This document shows, in pieces, positions 45,180-54,367 of a stretch of DNA of 64,000 bases. The notes under the pieces are model-generated. The model saw only the letters and a list, made by a program, of their open reading frames with translations, had not been told where the DNA came from and ran no database searches. Origin of the DNA: Candidatus Omnitrophota bacterium (GTDB lineage Bacteria; Omnitrophota; Gorgyraeia; Gygaellales; Profunditerraquicolaceae). Position 1 is the stretch's first letter; each line of letters begins with the position of its first letter. A program made the translations under genes and the position numbers. The DNA lies in the NCBI GenBank assembly GCA_026387335.1, contig JAPLLX010000001.1, positions 170,620 to 234,619 on the forward strand, written 5' to 3'.

Positions 45180-46232
<1,053 letters not shown>

Positions 46233-46233
46233 T

Positions 46234-46299
46234 AAATAGGGACAGCGACCGTTTTTTCTAATACTATATACACGAAAAAAACGGTCGCTGTCCCTATTT
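46234..46299. repeat. hairpin repeat element copy A: 24-bp perfect terminal inverted repeats AAATAGGGACAGCGACCGTTTTTT / AAAAAACGGTCGCTGTCCCTATTT with a 17-nt loop
   Basis: Read directly. It lies downstream of gap and upstream of the 746-aa gene. A T-rich tract on both sides suggests a bidirectional terminator. Confidence 0.8.
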
Positions 46300-46305
46300 A
46301 TTTCT

Positions 46306-48546
46306 ATGGCGCTTCTATCTACTATTTTTATTATCGGTTTAAGCGGCTTAATCGCTCAGATTATTATCCTGCGCGAGCTTCTGGTCAATTTTTCCGGTAA
46401 TGAGTTAACCGTAGGCATTATTCTGGCTAACTGGGTTATTCTGGAAGCCGCCGGTGTTTTTTTCCTCGGAAAAGCTATAGAGAGGATTAAGAATAAATTA
46501 AGCGTTTTTATAGCTTTAAATATACTCTTCGCGTTGATCCTGCCGTTTACTATTTACTTTGCGCGCACGTTTAAGGCGTTTACAGGCCTACCTTTTATAG
46601 AAGCGGTTTCTTTACCCGTTATATTCTTCTCTTCGTTGGCGATAATCTTTCCAGCGGCATTTTTACATGGCGCGCTCTTTAGCTGCGCTTGTAAGGAACA
46701 TTCCTTAATAACCAACAACTCTGAACGCTCAATAAGGATGGTTTATGCCTGGGAGGCCCTTGGGACAATATTCGGCGGGATAATTCTGGTATTTTTACTC
46801 ATACCGCGCCTGACTTCATTTCAAATAGTGCTTATTATTTCCTTCCTAAATATTATTTTGTCCATTTTTCTTACCCGGGCTAAGAAAAGATATTTTTATC
46901 TGTGCGTTATTACGTTTTTATGCGTTTTATTTTCCGCTAAAGCCGCGGGTTATTTGCAAAGAGCCTCAATTGATAAACAATGGCAGGGCCAGTTTATCCT
47001 GGATTATCGGAATTCTAATTACGCTAATATTACCGTAACCAAAAAACTTAACCAGTACACCTTTTTCTATAACGGAGTGCCGGCGATTACTACTCCTTTC
47101 CCGGATAAGCAATTTGTCAGCGACTTCGCCAACTTACCGTTATTATTTCATGACTCGCCGCAGGATATCCTGATTGTAGGTTCCGGTATCGGAGGCTTAA
47201 TCGCAGAGTCCCTGAAACACCCCCTCAAAAGCCTGGATTATGTTGAAATTGACCCCTTGATTATCAAGTTACTTAAAGAATACCCTACGTCTTTAAGCGA
47301 AGCTGAGCTCGCTGACAGCAGAGTAAATATTATTAATACCGACCCCCGGCTGTTCTTAATGACCAGCAAAAAATCTTACGATGTGATTTTGATAGGGCTA
47401 TCGGCTCAAGCGGATTTATCCAGTAACCGGTTTTTTACGGAAGAGTTTTTTAAGAGGGCTAAGATGAGACTAAATCCCAAAGGTATAATCGCTTTGTGGA
47501 TGCCAGGTTCATTGACCTACCTGAGCAGTGAGTTAAAAGATCTGAATAACTGCGTATGGAATAGTTTAAGGCTTTCTTTTAAATATACGCGCGTCATTCC
47601 TGGAGATTACAACATATTTATCGCTTCTGAGGCAGACGGGATAATGCTGGTTAATCCTACTTTATTATCCGAGAGGCTAATGAAGCGCGGTGTCGCGCAG
47701 GGGATACTCATTCCGGATTATCTTCAAGAGCGCTTAAGCCAGAGGTGGCTGGATTGGTTTAATCAGGAACTTAGGTTAGCCACAAAGGAGAGTAATCAGG
47801 ACCTGCGGCCCGCGGCAGTATATGCAACCTTAAAGATTATAAATAAGAAGTTCTCTCCCGGATTTAGCCGGGTATTTAGTTATCTTGGCTATGTTAATTT
47901 AAAATTATTATTCCTTATAATTTTTCTGATGAGCTTAGGGGTAATGGTTGTCTCTAAAATTAAACGTGATCCAAAAATCCCGGTTGCCTACGCGATTTTT
48001 ACAACCGGATTTTTCGGAATGCTGGCTAACCTGCTTTTATTATTTGCTTACCAGGTTTCTTACGGGTGCTTGTATCAGATGATAAGTATATTAACCGCGG
48101 TATTTATCTTTGGAGCCGCAATAGGGGTTATTTTACTTTCTCCGGCGTTTAGCCGGCTAAAGAAACCGGGATCAATTTTAATTATAATGGAAGCCTTAAT
48201 AATTAGTTTTATATTTATACTGGGGTCAGTTATTACCAGAGGCAACGTTATTTTAAACAATTCAGCTGCAATTTTCTATTGCCTATTGTTTATTGCGGGC
48301 TTACTTATGGGCCTGGAATTTCCTTTAGCCGCCAAGATATACCTAAAAGATAATAGGGATAACGCAGGCGCTGTTTCAGGGTTGCTTTATGCCAGCGATC
48401 TTATTGGCGGGTGGTTAGCCGGAATATTCGGGGGAGTCGTATTTTTGCCCGTGTTAGGCTTTTTTAATACCTGCCTGCTTATGGTTATGTTGAAGCTGAG
48501 CAGCCTTCTTGTGTTAATAAATAGGGACAGCGACCGTTTTTTCTAA
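46306..48546 (+). CDS. membrane protein fused to a spermidine-synthase-like (aminopropyl/methyltransferase-fold) domain
   Basis: N-terminal and C-terminal TM bundles flank a SpeE-like domain (ILIVGSGIGGL ... VEIDPLIIKL). Confidence 0.65.
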   Translation: MALLSTIFIIGLSGLIAQIIILRELLVNFSGNELTVGIILANWVILEAAGVFFLGKAIERIKNKLSVFIALNILFALILPFTIYFARTFKAFTGLPFIEAVSLPVIFFSSLAIIFPAAFLHGALFSCACKEHSLITNNSERSIRMVYAWEALGTIFGGIILVFLLIPRLTSFQIVLIISFLNIILSIFLTRAKKRYFYLCVITFLCVLFSAKAAGYLQRASIDKQWQGQFILDYRNSNYANITVTKKLNQYTFFYNGVPAITTPFPDKQFVSDFANLPLLFHDSPQDILIVGSGIGGLIAESLKHPLKSLDYVEIDPLIIKLLKEYPTSLSEAELADSRVNIINTDPRLFLMTSKKSYDVILIGLSAQADLSSNRFFTEEFFKRAKMRLNPKGIIALWMPGSLTYLSSELKDLNNCVWNSLRLSFKYTRVIPGDYNIFIASEADGIMLVNPTLLSERLMKRGVAQGILIPDYLQERLSQRWLDWFNQELRLATKESNQDLRPAAVYATLKIINKKFSPGFSRVFSYLGYVNLKLLFLIIFLMSLGVMVVSKIKRDPKIPVAYAIFTTGFFGMLANLLLLFAYQVSYGCLYQMISILTAVFIFGAAIGVILLSPAFSRLKKPGSILIIMEALIISFIFILGSVITRGNVILNNSAAIFYCLLFIAGLLMGLEFPLAAKIYLKDNRDNAGAVSGLLYASDLIGGWLAGIFGGVVFLPVLGFFNTCLLMVMLKLSSLLVLINRDSDRFF

Positions 48547-48583
48547 TACTATATACGCGGAAAAATGGTCGCTGTCCCTATTT
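48519..48583. repeat. hairpin repeat element copy B (about 95% identical to copy A, loop included)
   Basis: The left arm is identical. The right arm has 2 mismatches. The element encodes the last 9 codons and stop of the 746-aa gene. Confidence 0.8.
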
Positions 48584-48624
48584 AATCTATTGTTTTTGGG
48601 TATTGCGGTGGTATAATAAATTTT

Positions 48625-49233
48625 GTGACTGATTTAGATTTCGTCCAGAAATGCGTCAAAGGGGACAGCCAATCCTGGGATGAATTCTTAAAACGTTATT
48701 CCCGCCTGATATATAAGTATATCCACAGCGTATTAAACTCTAAGAACATTCTTGCCTCTAACCCTGACCATATAGACGATATATTTCAGGGTTTTTTCTC
48801 TTCTTTGATCCAAGACGACTATAAAAAACTAAAAAGCTTTAGAGGTATAAATGGCTGTAGCCTGGCCAGCTGGTTAAGGCTGCTTACTATAAATTTCACC
48901 CTGGATTATCTGCGTAGGGTTAAACCGGCATTTTCTCTGGAAGCTGAGAATGACGAAGGTTTTAGCCTTAAGGATACACTAGCTGATGGTTCAATTTCCG
49001 TGCCTGAGCTGCTTGCCCAGGAAGAAATGTTAAAGAGCCTGGAGGATTGCCTGGACGGTTTAAGCCTGCAAAGCAGGTTTCTTATAGAGTTAAATATTAA
49101 TCAAGGCGTAAAGCTGGAGGCCTTAAAAGATTTATTTAAACTTTCCCGCGGGGCCATAGATATGCAGAAGAAGAGGATTATTGATAAACTAAGAGAGTGT
49201 TTTAGGAGTAAAGGTTTTAAGTTAGATTTTTAA
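48625..49233 (+). CDS. ECF-type RNA polymerase sigma factor (sigma-70 family)
   Basis: Region 2 and region 4 architecture, 202 aa. GTG start lies 8 nt downstream of TGGTATAAT (extended -10 at 48609-48617). Confidence 0.7.
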   Translation: MTDLDFVQKCVKGDSQSWDEFLKRYSRLIYKYIHSVLNSKNILASNPDHIDDIFQGFFSSLIQDDYKKLKSFRGINGCSLASWLRLLTINFTLDYLRRVKPAFSLEAENDEGFSLKDTLADGSISVPELLAQEEMLKSLEDCLDGLSLQSRFLIELNINQGVKLEALKDLFKLSRGAIDMQKKRIIDKLRECFRSKGFKLDF

Positions 49234-49272
49234 GGCGCTTGCGTCTATTATACTAAGGAGGGGACTATCAAT

Positions 49273-49977
49273 ATGCCGGATAAGTTAGAGGTTTTAATTA
49301 AAAAAGTTTACAACAGATGGAAGAGGCGCTCTAGGGTTAACGATGCTCATCCTGATGAAGAGGCCATGGCTTGTTTTTTTGATGGTTGCTTAAGCTATGA
49401 AGAAAGCGAGCGGATAAAAGCCCATTTAGCTGCTTGTGATGATTGCGCTCATCTTTTTGCTCTTAGCTTAAACGCTGAAAGTTCCGCTGAATTAAAAGAG
49501 GTGCCTGAAGAGCTGCTAAACAGGGTGCTGGAGTTATTGAAATCAAATGATAAGCCGTCGATCCTGGATATTGTTTTACGGCTCAAAGAGAATATGCTTG
49601 AGATAATCAATGCCAGCGGAGATATTCTTTTAGGCCAGGAGTTAATTCCCGTACCGCTATTACGCAGCCGTAAAATCCGGGATTTTAAGGAGGAAGTCAC
49701 TATATTCAAGGATTTTAAGAATATTCGATTAGAGGTGCGGATAGAAAATAAGGATGGAAAATTCTTTAACTTAATGACCAGGGCTATTTTTAAGCCTGGC
49801 GCGCTACCCTTTAAAGGCTTAAGGGTTACTCTCTTTAAGGATGGTTTGGAATTAGAATCCTACCTTAGCGATTCGGGTTCGGTTAATTTTGAGCATGTTG
49901 CCTTGGGTAAATATGAGTTAGAGCTGAGCAACGATAGCGGTAAGTTCGCTTCAGTGGTTTTAGATATTAAGGCCTAA
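49273..49977 (+). CDS. soluble zinc-binding (ZAS-type, HxxxCxxC) anti-sigma factor candidate
   Basis: HLAACDDC motif. No TM segment. RBS AAGGAGG. Confidence 0.55.
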   Translation: MPDKLEVLIKKVYNRWKRRSRVNDAHPDEEAMACFFDGCLSYEESERIKAHLAACDDCAHLFALSLNAESSAELKEVPEELLNRVLELLKSNDKPSILDIVLRLKENMLEIINASGDILLGQELIPVPLLRSRKIRDFKEEVTIFKDFKNIRLEVRIENKDGKFFNLMTRAIFKPGALPFKGLRVTLFKDGLELESYLSDSGSVNFEHVALGKYELELSNDSGKFASVVLDIKA

Positions 49978-49985
49978 ATAAAAGA

Positions 49986-52205
49986 ATGCCAGAAGAAAAG
50001 ACCCTTATTTTGGAGATTAGCCGCCAGGTTGACCTGCTGAAGATGAGCCTTTTTGAGGCCAACGACTCTCCGGCAACCCTAAAGCAATATAGCCAGCACA
50101 AAGTCGATCTTAGCCAGATTGATCGGCTCTGCGCCGAGGTCACTTCAGTATTAAATAAGGTTGTCTTACAGGATAGCGCTTTAATTAGAAGCTTACAGAA
50201 AACAGGACAGGCCCTCTGGGATCATCTTTTAAGCCGTTCGGTTAAAGAGAGGTTAAAATCATCCCTCTCTGCCAACTTAGCGCTGACCATTGATGAAGAG
50301 CTGATTAATATTCCCTGGGAACTGCTTTATGATGGAGATAATTTTCTCTGCCTGAAATTTAACTTAGGAAGGCTGGTTAGGACGAAAAGCCAGGCTAGCC
50401 GGGTGCAATACCGCTCGGCTACGCATATTTTTAAGATGTTAATTTTGGCCAATCCGACCAATGATTTAAAATGCGCTTATCAGGAAGGCCTAAGCATTAA
50501 AAACCAGTTTGACCGTAAGCGTTCAAACATACACGTTGATTTTAAATCCACAAATATAGATAAGTTATACCTAAAGAAGAACCTTTGCGACTATGACATT
50601 ATACATTTTGCCGGGCATGGCGAGTATGACCAGTATAACCAGAAAAATAGCGGATGGGTCTTAAGCGACGGGAAATTTAATATACAGGATATTTTAAGCA
50701 TGGGGCAGGCTGTTTCTTTGCCGGCGTTGGTTTTTTCTAATGCCTGTAATTCGGCGCAAGGTAACGCCAGCGGTATAATTGAGGCGGATTATCAGAAGAG
50801 ATATTATTCCTTTGCTTCGGCCTTCCTTTTTTCAGGAGTCAGGCATTACATCGGCTCAATACGCAAGATTGATGATTTCGCCAGCCTGGCTTTCGCCAAA
50901 GAATTTTATCACCATTTAATCTTCGGGAAATCTGTCGGTGAAAGTTTGCGTTTAAGCAGGATCAAGTTAGTCCGGGATTATGGGCTCATCTCTTTACATT
51001 GGGCGAATTACCTGCTTTATGGAGACCCGGCTTTTTTTCTCTTTAAGCCCAAAGACAAAGCGTTTAAGAGCAGGGATAAAATAAGGGTAAGGCTAAACCG
51101 GAAATGGCTGGCCGGGTTTTTAATTTTAGCCGCCGGCATAGGGTTAGGTCTATGTCTCTTTATGTTTTTACCTACGCTTAATCCAAATGCCTACCGTTTA
51201 TTCTTGAAGTCCAGGGATTTATTTAGCAAAGGCGATAACCAGCAAGTTATCCAGCTGGCTGACCGGATTATTAAGAAAGACCCGGACTTCCGGGATATTT
51301 ACCGGTTGCTTGGCGATACTTACCTTAGGCTGGGGAATAAGGAGAGGGCCTTAAAATATTATTTTGACTACGCGCTTTTAGCGGAGAAGAAGCGGGATTT
51401 TAAGTGTTTAGCCGCAGGCTATATTGAAATTGGCTGGCTTTACCAACTGCAAGGTGAATACCTTAAGGCAGCTGATTTTTATAATAAGGCCCTGGAATTG
51501 GCGCGCAAGAACAATGATAAATTAAATGAAGCCGTAGCCATGCGTAAGCTGGCTGTATGGCATATAGATAAGGATGAAAACGATTTGGCCTTAAGTCTTT
51601 TAACCAAAAGCGCCGAGATTAACCGCGAAAGGCAGTATTCTTATGAGCATCGCTATAACCTGGCTTGCGATTATTTTGATATCGGATTGGTTTTTTCCAA
51701 TAAGGAGGATTTTAAAGCCGCGGATGAGTTTTACCGCAAAAGCCGGGTGATTTTTGAGAGACTTAAAATTAAGAATGGTTTAAGCGATTATTATTTTAAT
51801 CTTGGGGAATTGTGTTTATTTGAAAAACAGTATCAAAAGGCCAAAGATTATTACTTAGCCGGGCTAAGGATAGATTTGAGCCAGGGGAATAAATTGAACC
51901 TGCCTTCGGATTATAACATGATCGGCGAGCTGTATCTTGAGATGGATATGCTACTGGAAGCTAAACTTGCCTTGGAAGAGTCGCTAAATGCCGCAAAAGA
52001 GATCCAGGCGCAGCCGGAAGTGGCCGCGGCGTATCATAATTTAGGTTTGTTGTATAAGAAACTGGGAAAAAAGAATAAGGCCAAGGAATTCTTGCGGCTG
52101 GCGCAGGAAATTTACAGTATTATTGACCCCTTGGCTTATAAAGAGGTAAAAAATGAGATTTTAGGCCTGGATGGGGCAAACCTGCCGGACTTGACAAAGC
52201 CTTAA
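49986..52205 (+). CDS. CHAT-domain (caspase-like) protease fused via one TM helix to C-terminal TPR repeats
   Basis: His in HFAGHGEYD and Cys in FSNACNSAQG form the catalytic dyad. TM helix FLILAAGIGLGLCLFMFL. Several TPR repeats follow. Confidence 0.75.
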   Translation: MPEEKTLILEISRQVDLLKMSLFEANDSPATLKQYSQHKVDLSQIDRLCAEVTSVLNKVVLQDSALIRSLQKTGQALWDHLLSRSVKERLKSSLSANLALTIDEELINIPWELLYDGDNFLCLKFNLGRLVRTKSQASRVQYRSATHIFKMLILANPTNDLKCAYQEGLSIKNQFDRKRSNIHVDFKSTNIDKLYLKKNLCDYDIIHFAGHGEYDQYNQKNSGWVLSDGKFNIQDILSMGQAVSLPALVFSNACNSAQGNASGIIEADYQKRYYSFASAFLFSGVRHYIGSIRKIDDFASLAFAKEFYHHLIFGKSVGESLRLSRIKLVRDYGLISLHWANYLLYGDPAFFLFKPKDKAFKSRDKIRVRLNRKWLAGFLILAAGIGLGLCLFMFLPTLNPNAYRLFLKSRDLFSKGDNQQVIQLADRIIKKDPDFRDIYRLLGDTYLRLGNKERALKYYFDYALLAEKKRDFKCLAAGYIEIGWLYQLQGEYLKAADFYNKALELARKNNDKLNEAVAMRKLAVWHIDKDENDLALSLLTKSAEINRERQYSYEHRYNLACDYFDIGLVFSNKEDFKAADEFYRKSRVIFERLKIKNGLSDYYFNLGELCLFEKQYQKAKDYYLAGLRIDLSQGNKLNLPSDYNMIGELYLEMDMLLEAKLALEESLNAAKEIQAQPEVAAAYHNLGLLYKKLGKKNKAKEFLRLAQEIYSIIDPLAYKEVKNEILGLDGANLPDLTKP

Positions 52206-52220
52206 AAAATATGTTATACT
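52191..52220 (+). promoter_or_regulatory. sigma-70-like promoter TTGACA-18-TATACT upstream of the riboswitch
   Basis: Read directly. The -35 lies within the last codons of the CHAT gene. Confidence 0.45.
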
Positions 52221-52257
52221 TTTTTAGTTGATATTTGACAATTTAAACCTGACCTAA

Positions 52258-52345
52258 TGAAAAGGCTAACCAGCAGCAATGCTGGGGCGCAAAACTTCCG
52301 GACCCGCCAAAGGCGGGCTAGCGGGGTTGCCAAAAGGAGCTAACC
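52258..52345 (+). ncRNA. c-di-GMP-I (GEMM) riboswitch aptamer candidate
   Basis: GGCUAACC, a 4-bp hairpin with a GCAA tetraloop, GGGGCGCAAAAC, the P3 hairpin CCCGCC-AAAG-GCGGG, and CUAGCGGGGUUGCC. This closely parallels the Vc2 pattern GGCAAACC-[GNRA hairpin]-GGGACGCAAAGCC ... GGUAGCGGGGUUACC. Confidence 0.6.
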
Positions 52346-52372
52346 CTAAAATTAATCCTTTTAGGGTTTTTT
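52342..52372 (+). terminator. intrinsic terminator (riboswitch expression platform)
   Basis: AACCCTAAAA-ttaatcc-TTTTAGGGTT followed by TTTTTG. It overlaps the 3' strand of the aptamer. Confidence 0.6.
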
Positions 52373-52445
52373 GTTGCAGAGGGCAACACACCGAACCATC
52401 CGATAGGTTTGGGTGACCCTGGAGGAGGGCGCAAAGGAGGCTAAG

Positions 52446-52553
52446 ATGAGGCGAATGCATAGAAAGTTAATGCGCAAACCAGCAAGAAGGCACCATAAGA
52501 GGCAGCCAAGCTTTATCCAGGCTATAAGGCTATATTTAGGCATGCCAGCGTAA
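52446..52553 (+). CDS. 35-aa highly basic small protein (MRRMHRKLMRKPARRHHKRQPSFIQAIRLYLGMPA)
   Basis: Consensus SD AAAGGAGG sits 5 nt upstream of the ATG. The ORF lies in the GC-rich island downstream of the riboswitch and is not in the ORF track because it is under 60 aa. Confidence 0.4.
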   Translation: MRRMHRKLMRKPARRHHKRQPSFIQAIRLYLGMPA

Positions 52554-52556
52554 AAT

Positions 52557-52609
52557 AAATAGGGACAGCGACCGTTTTTCTATGGGAAAAACGGTCGCTG
52601 TCCCTATTT
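52557..52609. repeat. hairpin repeat element copy C (same 23-bp arms, 7-nt loop)
   Basis: Read directly. It lies immediately after the small ORF stop. Confidence 0.8.
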
Positions 52610-52618
52610 AAAGTGGCC

Positions 52619-52646
52619 TTGAAAATCAGGGCTGATGTGTTATACT
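52619..52646 (+). promoter_or_regulatory. sigma-70-like promoter TTGAAA-16-TATACT
   Basis: Read directly. The predicted TSS is at the GGCAAGGGG stem. Confidence 0.45.
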
Positions 52647-52733
52647 TAGTTTAGGCAAGGGGTAAACTACCAGCGGGCAGGCAATGCCCGGTAAAAAACA
52701 AAGAAAAATAGAATTCCCCTTGCCAGTTTTATT

Positions 52734-52769
52734 TTCCCCGTATTGAAAAAATGCGGGGATTTTTTTTAA
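52734..52769 (+). terminator. strong intrinsic terminator/attenuator in the leader of the BNR-repeat gene
   Basis: CCCCG-tattgaaaaaatg-CGGGG followed by T8. Confidence 0.6.
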
Positions 52770-52816
52770 GTTAGATTTCTCTACCTCCCGCGTCTATTGA
52801 AGCAGGAGGTGGTAAA

Positions 52817-54367
52817 ATGAAAAAAGTTATAGTAGTTTTAGCAGCGCTGGTTTTGGTGAGCGGGAAGGCCTGGTCGTCAGAGCCTGAGTGGCAGGAGGTA
52901 AGCAGGGGCATAGTTAACGTAAGAAGCGTTTTAGTCAGTCCGGATAACCCTAAAGTAATTTATGCCGGAGCGGATAAAGGGGTATTTAGAACTGAAGACG
53001 CGGGTAATACTTGGCGGAATATCCTTTCAGTCCGCGGGGATAGCCGCGCGGTTAATTATCTGATTTTTGATGCCCAGAATAAAAATGCCCTCTACGCGGC
53101 AACCGGAAACGGTCTCTATTTTAGCGAAAACGCTGGCCAAAGATGGAACAGGATTTTTAAAGGTAAGAATTCATTTGAAAATGAGTGCGTATTCGTAACC
53201 ATAATACCTCAAGGCATGTATCTGGGGACAAAATCCGGTTTGTTCGTTAGTAAAGATAGGGGCCGCTCCTGGTATAAGGAAGCAGGAAAATTAGGGGCAA
53301 GCAGAATATTTAATATTAGCGTTGTTTATAAGGAGCCGGAGCAGCTTTATGTTTCCTGCAGTGATGGGGTATTTAAAACCGTTGATAGCGGGATGACCTG
53401 GGAAAGAATTTTTATCGCGCATCCGGTAGAAAACGGCTTAGAGCAGGAAGAAGAAACTGAAGACCGCGATGAAGATGAACGGCATTCTGAGATAAGGTAT
53501 GTAGCCATAGATCCGCAAAGTCCGGATAATCTATACTTGGCGACCAGCCGCGGAGTATACAAGAGTAAAAACAGGGGCGCGGGTTGGGAATTATTATCCG
53601 AATACGGATTACTCAGCCGCGACACCCAATTTTTATTATTTTCGGATAAATCATCCGGGTTCTATGCAATGAGTAAGTCAGGAGTTTTTATGTATAAGGA
53701 TGACGCCTGGAGAGAACTTTCTTTTAACCTTGCTTCCGGTAGCATTAATTTCTTACTATTGGATAAAGATATGAATTTATACGCCTGTAGCGATAAGGGA
53801 TTATTTAAGACTAGTTTAAGCTATACAAGTTCGTTTGAGGTTCCGGATATAATTTCGGGGTATTCCAACGGAGAGCCCGGGATTGAAGAGGTGCAAAAAC
53901 AGGCAATTAAATACGCTGAGGTAGAGCCCAGTAAAATAATTAATTGGAGGAAGCAGGCGCAGAAAAAAGCTATATTTCCCAAGGTAAGTATGGGTCTGGA
54001 AAGAAATACCGGCGACCTCTGGCACTGGGAGGGCGGTTCAACCACTAAAGATTGCGATGATACTTTAAGGCGCGGACGGGATACGCTGGATTGGGATGTT
54101 ACTTTAAGCTGGGATTTAAGCGAGTTGGTCTGGAATAGCGACCAGACCTCTATTGATACGCGCTCACGGCTGATGGTGCAGCTAAGGGACGACATACTTG
54201 ACGAAGTGAATAAAACATATTTTGAGCGTATTCGGGTTAAGATGGAGATGGATAGTTTACAGATTGAGGATAGAAAGAAGCGCTTTGAAAAAGAATTACG
54301 GGTCAGGGAGTTGACCGCTTCGCTGGACGCCCTTACCGGCGGCTATTTCTCAAGCCATACGCGCTAA
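52817..54367 (+). CDS. secreted BNR/Asp-box repeat beta-propeller protein (Ycf48/sialidase-like repeats)
   Basis: Signal peptide MKKVIVVLAALVLVSGKAWS. At least 5 repeats of S/T-x-D-x-G-x-T/S-W. RBS AGGAGGTG. Confidence 0.7.
   Translation: MKKVIVVLAALVLVSGKAWSSEPEWQEVSRGIVNVRSVLVSPDNPKVIYAGADKGVFRTEDAGNTWRNILSVRGDSRAVNYLIFDAQNKNALYAATGNGLYFSENAGQRWNRIFKGKNSFENECVFVTIIPQGMYLGTKSGLFVSKDRGRSWYKEAGKLGASRIFNISVVYKEPEQLYVSCSDGVFKTVDSGMTWERIFIAHPVENGLEQEEETEDRDEDERHSEIRYVAIDPQSPDNLYLATSRGVYKSKNRGAGWELLSEYGLLSRDTQFLLFSDKSSGFYAMSKSGVFMYKDDAWRELSFNLASGSINFLLLDKDMNLYACSDKGLFKTSLSYTSSFEVPDIISGYSNGEPGIEEVQKQAIKYAEVEPSKIINWRKQAQKKAIFPKVSMGLERNTGDLWHWEGGSTTKDCDDTLRRGRDTLDWDVTLSWDLSELVWNSDQTSIDTRSRLMVQLRDDILDEVNKTYFERIRVKMEMDSLQIEDRKKRFEKELRVRELTASLDALTGGYFSSHTR

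Follow-up and report, generated by a model that had tools for sequence, protein, structure and literature searches.

The 64,000-nt stretch of DNA analyzed here (hereafter, the window), from a metagenome-assembled genome of Candidatus Omnitrophota, holds a compact regulatory interval in the 610-nt gap between a CHAT-TPR gene and a gene for a BNR-repeat protein. On balance we favor, with somewhat better than even confidence, the view that this interval comprises two adjacent transcription units and not one leader. The first would be a small RNA gene, and the second would be the BNR gene itself, started from a promoter of the extracytoplasmic function (ECF) sigma factor type and carrying a fold-back lock on its Shine-Dalgarno (SD) sequence. 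An earlier note on the same DNA had described a single structured leader, a riboswitch or attenuator, or else an independent small RNA of about 115 nt. Every element that it listed is present in the sequence (the promoter, the P1 stem, the inner hairpin, the terminator, and the SD-sequestering helix), and the helices are also present in the minimum free energy (MFE) fold; what changes here is how they belong together. The case is built on conservation, structure, covariation, duplication of a promoter motif, and pairing statistics, and the coordinates of all features are collected in Table 1.

The small RNA gene opens with a sigma-70-type promoter whose boxes lie at 52619-52624 (TTGAAA) and 52641-52646 (TATACT), with an extended -10 TG at 52638-52639 (TGtTATACT). 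The core that follows is built from two stems. P1, of 9 bp, pairs GGCAAGGGG (52654-52662) with CCCCTTGCC (52716-52724), and P2, of 6 bp, pairs CGGGCA (52674-52679) with TGCCCG (52685-52690) around the loop GGCAA (52680-52684). The strand AAACUACCAGC (52664-52674) runs through the P1-P2 junction (52664-52673) to C52674, the first base of P2, while the 3' strand of the core (52691-52715) is A-rich and variable. A U-rich linker, AGUUUUAUUUU, then leads into an intrinsic terminator. The 177-nt stretch from 52654 to 52830 folds with an MFE of -65.7 kcal/mol against -40.2 +/- 4.1 kcal/mol for its shuffles (z = -6.3, with 0/200 shuffles as good), and its 117-nt part gives z = -4.9. The fold of the longer stretch contains exactly the helices that the earlier note had named.

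Comparative material was assembled in two ways. Fifteen distinct orthologue loci (here given L numbers, as are the other loci) were gathered through the BNR protein at 54-85% identity, and in a metagenome scan 31 loci matched the pattern AAACTACCAGCNNNNNGGCAANNNNNGG, of which 18 are true small RNA loci and 13 are chance matches. The latter (about 10 distinct places) were dropped, as they lie within coding sequence and their P2 strands are not complementary. A scan of viral contigs for the small RNA pattern gave no matches. The covariance model of the small RNA (R1) and its alignment (A3) comprise 23 distinct sequences, all from Omnitrophota.

In these 23 sequences the promoter, the P1/P2 core, and the terminator are found together. 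A promoter of the form TTGAAA-16/18-(TG)nTATAnT stands in every small RNA locus with enough upstream sequence, and a hairpin with a T-run follows the core in every distinct locus with downstream sequence except L019, where the sole terminator candidate is P1 followed by a T-run. The terminator stems are unrelated in sequence between lineages, and L033 even has the G-rich and C-rich arms swapped. The GGCAA loop and the AAACUACCAGC strand are invariant throughout, an invariance (AAACTACCAGC/GGCAA) that is partly forced by the search pattern in the metagenome loci and for which the eight protein-sampled loci are the independent test.

Pairing amounts to 99-100% in both stems, and 99.4% of all pair cells in alignment A3 are paired. 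Covariation, which the earlier note had named as a check, is present: 5/15 pairs show compensatory changes, versus 0.2 in shuffles, none of 500 shuffles reached five, and controls with slid partners gave 0-1 pairs with double changes. In P1, a C-G pair becomes U-A in L015 and one A-U pair is lost on both strands in L019; in P2, L023 and L026 each have A-U in place of G-C, at different positions. The G-U variants in P1 fit only the plus strand and so support transcription of that strand.

The RNA and the BNR gene do not always travel together. The earlier note expected the leader to be kept upstream of orthologous BNR genes; this holds for 8/15 loci and fails for the other seven, about half (L003, L005, L011, L012, L013, L014, and L016). 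Conversely, in L023 and L026 the small RNA lies beside unrelated genes, downstream of a permease or secreted-protein gene. Of the readings that the note had offered, the independent small RNA of about 115 nt is thus the one that fares best, being conserved as a unit of promoter, core, and terminator in the 23 sequences and occurring away from BNR in two loci. These observations support the assignment of 52619-52767 as a putative free-standing small RNA gene and not as a BNR leader.

Some further observations concern the small RNA itself. Features of the Hfq class II type are visible, on the sequence alone, in the A-rich segment 52691-52715, in UUUUAUUUU, and in the U8 tract. Downstream of the small RNA in L023 (2600-2780) and L026 (3100-3710) stands a promoter, TTGACA...TATCAT, and a perfect palindrome (ATGATAC..GTATCAT) overlaps it. 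Past this palindromic operator comes a short conserved open reading frame (ORF) or leader, MDITVR(F/Y)MLRPVAHCKEGC..., and in L026 the next gene encodes a 133-aa regulator, Rrf2-like by eye; L023 ends before that point. No additional copies of the small RNA were found in the window or in the BNR loci that lack it upstream. Similarly, a target search within the window with the complement of the invariant 11-mer (GCTGGTAGTTT) returned only the gene itself, and apparent matches by eye to the signal-peptide codons of BNR were set aside, as they are not conserved.

The second unit begins immediately behind the terminator, with a bipartite motif, GTTAGATT-N13-CGTCTATT, that is exact at two places in the window. 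Upstream of BNR, its boxes are GTTAGA (52770-52775), which resembles a -35 element, and CGTCTA (52791-52796), which resembles a -10 element and would place the BNR start site near 52802-52805. The other copy overlaps the 3' end of an ECF sigma factor gene, 24 nt before the start codon of the anti-sigma gene. The same double arrangement is found in L006, L008, L009, and L010. Altogether we count 40 distinct instances, 27 before BNR genes and 13 before anti-sigma genes (the window and 12 other loci). Their spacing is identical in 40/40: 15 nt from GTTAGA to the -10-like NGTCTATT (CGTCTATT in all but two), equal to 13 nt between GTTAGATT and CGTCTATT.

The motif is retained at every BNR orthologue, the seven that lack the small RNA among them. 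In most cases a terminator T-run comes directly before it (L011, L016, and the window are examples), so that another promoter would have no space there, and in loci without insertions it lies at a nearly constant 5-6 nt from the SD. SigW-type ECF promoters have the form TGAAAC-N16-CGTA. Since the layout TGTTAG-N16-CGTCTA fits the general ECF form and an ECF sigma factor is encoded close by, we read the motif as an ECF-dependent promoter, and we consider it quite probable that it serves in this role both for the BNR gene and for the anti-sigma/CHAT-TPR operon.

In five loci (L002, at 476-574, L036, L024, L033, and L014), a structured insertion of 80-190 nt lies in the BNR 5' untranslated region, between CGTCTATT and the SD. 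An outer stem (UAAGU/ACUUA) encloses a long hairpin and is followed by GAACUU and a second GC hairpin. Among four sequences, compensatory changes affect six pairs, and there is no Rfam match. This insertion could be a cis-regulatory RNA in its own right, carried by the ECF-initiated transcript.

The spacer of the BNR promoter motif doubles as an anti-SD strand. In the window, CUACCUCC (52781-52788) pairs with GGAGGUGG (52805-52812), which includes the ribosome-binding site (RBS) GGAGGT (52805-52810) just ahead of the BNR ATG at 52817; the spacer:SD duplex is worth -14.5 kcal/mol. The earlier note had paired ACCUCC with this RBS. That helix is real, covaries, and is longer than claimed, the ACCTCC lying at 52783-52788 and not at 52784-52789; its 5' strand is the spacer of the promoter motif. 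Over the 27 BNR-type spacers of 15 nt, the mean duplex energy is -15.9 kcal/mol (z = -2.6 versus shuffles of the same spacer), often with 12-15 contiguous pairs. The 13 anti-sigma-type spacers of the identical motif have no anti-SD and give -4.4 kcal/mol, with z about 0.

The two strands of this helix change together, as UUUGCC/GGCAAA, UUUACC/GGUAAA, CUUCUCCCUU/AAGGGAGGUG in L016, GCCUUCCU/AGGAGGGC in L013, and UUGCCG/CGGCAA in L024. When own partners were compared with swapped ones, 0/20000 permutations equaled the observed pairing, a count that ignores sequence kinship. The pairing persists even across the 80-nt insertion (L002, L024, L033, and L036). In the window, the SD is predicted to be unpaired with a probability of 0.17 when the transcript includes the spacer and of 0.67 when it begins at the inferred ECF start; the means are 0.19 and 0.67, taken over 24 loci classed as BNR-type in that run, a few of them mis-assigned. 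Because the anti-SD strand is the promoter spacer, the helix would act on read-through transcripts and not as a ligand-controlled platform. Two further ideas were examined: an H-type pseudoknot of the two promoter boxes with the anti-SD helix was rejected on geometry, and no consistent pattern of covariation was seen by eye between the small RNA (the U/C before AAAC and the GGCAA loop) and the anti-SD or post-SD sequence.

Put together, the two units might work as follows. A strong housekeeping-type promoter would start the small RNA at about 52653/52654, and transcription would end either at the U-tract after P1 or at the hairpin with U8, giving RNAs of about 80 and about 115 nt. The invariant unpaired nucleotides may form the working surface of a trans-acting RNA, through base-pairing with targets or binding of a protein. 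From 52770 onward, the motif would serve the ECF sigma factor, whose gene lies 3.5 kb upstream, and through the identical copy at 49221 this sigma factor would drive its own anti-sigma/CHAT-TPR genes as well. Transcripts begun farther upstream, whether they arrive by terminator read-through or from upstream genes, would carry the spacer, fold back, and hide the RBS; in L012 and L013, such transcripts would come straight from the preceding gene. Those begun at the ECF promoter would lack the spacer and be translatable. We propose that if only these can be translated, then the BNR protein would be made only when the ECF sigma factor is active.

Table 1. Features of the BNR locus and its surroundings (positions in the window; strand as read 5' to 3')
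Feature	Position	Strand	Basis or remark
ECF sigma factor	48625-49233	+	TIGR02937 sigma70-ECF, 59.2 bits (cut-off 42.9)
Second exact copy of GTTAGATT-N13-CGTCTATT	49221-49249	+	Zero mismatches; two copies in window
Anti-sigma factor, zf-HC2 (ZAS-like)	49273-49977	+	Pfam
CHAT-TPR protein	49986-52205	+	Pfam
Separate upstream unit	52191-52374	+	Promoter, c-di-GMP-I aptamer, terminator-like hairpin
Riboswitch promoter, TTGACA-18-TATACT	52191-52220	+	Sequence
c-di-GMP-I riboswitch aptamer	52254-52334	+	Rfam RF01051, 64.7 bits (gathering score 35)
Terminator-like hairpin and T-run	52342-52368	+	Sequence
Arginine-rich small ORF, 35 aa, MRRMHRKLMRKPARRHHKRQPSFIQAIRLYLGMPA	52446-52553	+	SD AAGGAGG at 52434-52440
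Palindromic repeat with 26-bp stem, bidirectional terminator-like hairpin	52548-52611	.	One of three window copies
Small RNA promoter, sigma-70-type, TTGAAA-16 nt-TATACT	52619-52646	+	Sequence; consensus at 10/12 positions
Small RNA core, about 71 nt	52654-52724	+	MFE, covariance model R1, alignment A3
U-rich linker and intrinsic terminator	52725-52767	+	Stem 52735-52759, T8 52760-52767
ECF-sigma-type promoter motif, GTTAGATT-N13-CGTCTATT	52770-52798	+	Zero mismatches
Promoter spacer, anti-SD strand	52776-52790	+	Duplex energy, pairing statistics
SD GGAGGUGG, short spacer, and BNR AUG	52805-52819	+	3' strand of fold-back helix
BNR / Sortilin-Vps10 / Ycf48-like beta-propeller protein, 516 aa	52817-54367	+	Pfam and NCBIfam

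The BNR protein of the window is 100% identical to the NCBI entry NTW18_01180, and its N-terminus, read by eye, resembles a signal peptide. Orthologues across Omnitrophota are 54-85% identical. The ECF sigma, anti-sigma, and CHAT-TPR cluster (48625-52205, plus strand) is conserved and syntenic with the BNR gene. The best PDB matches of the sigma factor are SigW and sigma-E, and it is also weakly matched by the NCBIfam model of a type III-E CRISPR-associated RpoE-like sigma factor. Its gene is preceded by a sigma-70-type promoter (TTGTTT ... TGGTATAAT, 48590-48627) whose -10 element ends 7 nt before the first possible start codon, a GTG at 48625. Either the sigma factor mRNA would be leaderless or the true start would be the ATG at 48651. 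No ECF motif was found upstream of the sigma gene itself in the window.

Between the CHAT-TPR gene and the small RNA lies a separate unit with a cyclic di-GMP (c-di-GMP) riboswitch, the only Rfam family to reach its gathering threshold in the 64-kb window. In one scan, the c-di-GMP-I aptamer was present in the intergenic region of 17/18 related loci and in 0/11 others. In L005 (2820-2910), such an aptamer stands directly upstream of the BNR promoter on the opposite, minus strand and points away from BNR. Conservation of the 35-aa small ORF downstream of the riboswitch extends from the window to 19 other distinct loci, and its C-terminal half is nearly invariant. The peptide has no relatives in Pfam, NCBIfam, or PDB, and with two matching proteins in a 5.8-billion-protein database it is essentially unannotated. 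The window and 18 other distinct loci have riboswitch, small ORF, and small RNA together, whereas in L019, L023, L026, L027, L033, and L040 the small RNA has neither of the other two in its vicinity. An obligatory pairing of small ORF and small RNA was therefore rejected, given these six small RNA lineages without a small ORF nearby.

A palindromic repeat (AAATAGGGACAGCGACCGTTTTT ... AAAAACGGTCGCTGTCCCTATTT) occurs three times in the window, at 46225-46301, 48510-48585, and 52548-52611, each time just after a gene end. Only in this genome does such a copy, the last of the three, stand between the small ORF and the small RNA promoter. As it is absent from the homologous site of L006 (85% identical), it looks like a mobile terminator element of the REP (repetitive extragenic palindromic) or MITE (miniature inverted-repeat transposable element) kind.

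It is important to weigh what speaks against two transcription units. Each compensatory change in the small RNA is seen in one sequence only, so covariation support is modest, and the search pattern biases the sample of small RNA sequences and accounts for part of the invariance of the core, as said above. The small RNA stands directly upstream of the BNR promoter in 20/23 versions, with one more cut by a contig end, a position that would also suit a cis relationship. The -35-like GTTAGA, in contrast with SigW/SigX/SigM-type promoters, lacks the AAC typical of many ECF promoters, and it is unusual that the motif stands before the anti-sigma gene instead of before the sigma gene. The helix of the window is only moderately better than those of shuffled spacers (z = -1.3), and the permutation count takes no account of kinship. 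What we infer from the features described are the ends and start sites of the transcripts, their dependence on the sigma factor, the effect on translation, and what the small RNA does.

The alternative that survives best, and which we nevertheless consider unlikely, is that the GTTAGATT/CGTCTATT boxes are a site for a regulator, acting on RNA or as an operator, and that BNR and the anti-sigma gene are transcribed from upstream promoters; the anti-SD would then lock translation until a protein, a small RNA, or temperature releases it. An anti-SD placed between the boxes works as RNA, which implies that the region is transcribed at least sometimes, and the transcript of the sigma/anti-sigma operon includes the copy at 49221. 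The nearly constant distance from motif to SD would suit such a site as well, and UAGAU and GUCUA in the boxes could, by eye, form 5 bp. However, the boxes keep an exact spacing in all 40 instances, as is characteristic of sigma -35/-10 geometry, a CGTC-type -10 beside an ECF sigma gene fits ECF promoters, and the anti-sigma copies are without an anti-SD. Upstream transcription would also be weak in the many loci where the motif abuts a terminator T-run.

Distinctly improbable, in our judgment, is the idea that the small RNA regulates the ECF/BNR module in response to a ligand or protein. Conditional read-through of its terminator would then yield a locked long transcript and occlude the ECF promoter, the junction and GGCAA loop setting the extracytoplasmic stress output. 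We give the same low standing to a variant in which the 35-aa peptide, under control of the c-di-GMP riboswitch, would bind the boxB-like P2 and so tie c-di-GMP to the small RNA.

We would give still less credence to the single cis leader of the earlier note, in which the BNR mRNA would start at 52654, P1/P2 would be an aptamer through which a ligand or protein controls the terminator, and the anti-SD would be the translational half of the switch. It has real attractions: the 20/23 positions immediately upstream of BNR, an aptamer-like build (a P1-closed junction with invariant unpaired nucleotides, then a terminator), an A-rich tail resembling that of preQ1-I, and an SD-sequestering helix that does exist. 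Yet the 7/15 BNR orthologues without the RNA still keep the motif and the anti-SD, the RNA stands beside other genes in L023 and L026, and a conserved promoter-like motif intervenes between terminator and RBS. With its 9 bp and high GC content, P1 is very stable, and in this it does not resemble a ligand-gated P1. The attenuator version meets the further difficulty that neither a conserved terminator/antiterminator alternative nor a conserved alternative pairing with P1 was seen by inspection, no dedicated search having been made, and that the terminator stems differ between lineages to the point of swapped arms in L033. Nor does any Rfam riboswitch family reach threshold.

Just as doubtful is the notion that the small RNA has no function of its own, being the structured 3' end (stabilizer plus terminator) of the small-ORF mRNA or an insulator before the BNR promoter: it draws on seven loci without a terminator between the small-ORF stop and the small RNA (L002, L006, L009, L021, L034, L036, and L042), where the terminator of the small RNA must also end the small-ORF mRNA, and on the company that ORF and RNA keep in the window and 18 others (L016 has the small ORF alone), but it is opposed by the RNA's own conserved promoter, by the six loci that have the RNA without small ORF or riboswitch, and by an 11-nt strand and 5-nt loop that stay invariant while the BNR proteins are 54-85% identical and that a plain terminator or stabilizer does not need.

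Turning to known RNA families, no Rfam 15 family reached its gathering score for 52648-52770 in the scan of the 64-kb window or in two permissive scans. The best permissive match to the core was preQ1-I (RF00522), with 16.2 bits against a gathering score of 39, and it was rejected. The core does share with preQ1-I a short hairpin followed by an A-rich tail (UAAAAAAC-AAG). However, its 5-nt loop, invariant in 23 sequences, cannot form the H-type pseudoknot, it has an outer P1, and its neighbors are BNR, ECF sigma, and CHAT-TPR genes, with no queuosine genes nearby. A sobemovirus frameshift element (13 bits, with UAAACUACCAGCGGG in common) was likewise rejected as a chance or partial resemblance, and the remaining permissive matches fell on the terminator or were noise.

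The small RNA and the c-di-GMP-I aptamer have CCAGC..GCAAUGC..GG in common. The P2 region, CCAGC GGGCAGGCAAUGCCC GG with its A-rich run (52664-52700), resembles the first hairpin of the aptamer, CCAGCAGCAAUGCUGG GGCGCAAAAC (52262-52290), and model R1 weakly matches the c-di-GMP-I aptamer of L011 (2839-2969; 18 bits, E = 0.13). The c-di-GMP models do not match the small RNA in permissive scans. This likeness, an unproven resemblance, may reflect shared ancestry or coincidence.

Omnitrophota are uncultivated, and almost nothing is known of their RNA regulators. From this locus comes a small RNA family with clear limits and strong conservation, which Rfam does not contain and which can now be modeled and searched for. 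Alongside it come a candidate promoter motif and a two-operon regulon for the ECF sigma/anti-sigma/CHAT-TPR signaling module, and a covariation-supported case in which a promoter spacer doubles as an anti-SD strand. The likely effect of an anti-SD embedded in a promoter is that translation is restricted to transcripts begun by the correct sigma factor. To our knowledge, this principle of insulation by fold-back has been described mainly for insertion sequences, and its conserved form at a chromosomal gene suggests that it may be used more widely. There is also a lesson for genome annotation: where an SD-sequestering helix comes after a terminator, the two do not necessarily make a riboswitch. 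The small RNA family, the ECF-type promoter, and the promoter-embedded anti-SD are each a new instance of a familiar type.

Several known systems help to place these parts. DapZ and MicL are small RNAs in 3' untranslated regions with their own promoters. Like them, in most lineages our small RNA comes right after the stop of an upstream ORF, has its own promoter, and has a terminator in common with the mRNA; unlike them, it also occurs without an upstream partner gene. The boxB hairpins of lambdoid phages are bound by arginine-rich N peptides, and the P22 boxB pentaloop is GACAA. P2, similarly, has a short GC stem, its pentaloop (GGCAA) follows the pattern G-N-(N)-A-A, and in many loci the gene for the arginine-rich 35-aa peptide lies just upstream of the small RNA. 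However, the small RNA occurs in six lineages without a peptide gene nearby, and the likeness to boxB is one of resemblance only.

The bipartite motif, with its fixed spacing and CGTC-type -10, compares well with promoters of the SigW/SigX/SigM type, and its position beside genes for an ECF sigma factor and a zinc-finger anti-sigma factor, with a copy before a gene of their own cluster, is like that of other ECF systems. In the DdvS/DdvA system, an ECF sigma factor is paired with an anti-sigma factor (DdvA) to which a TPR-CHAT domain is fused (PMC11506125). There, as here, a CHAT-TPR protein is part of an ECF module; in contrast to DdvA, the anti-sigma and CHAT-TPR proteins of the window are separate, with the look of a split version (PMC11506125).

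The closest parallel for the lock is the fold-back inhibition of the IS10/Tn10 transposase (Davis, Simons & Kleckner 1985, Cell 43:379, as cited in PMC13181058). In that account, sequence upstream of the gene's own start is complementary to the RBS, so that transcripts from outside are silent and those from its own promoter are translated; the corresponding effect at the BNR gene is predicted only. Unlike the transposase gene, the BNR gene is chromosomal and is proposed to be ECF-regulated. Its anti-SD strand, moreover, is the very spacer between the -35 and -10 elements, and the pairing covaries across many lineages of the phylum.

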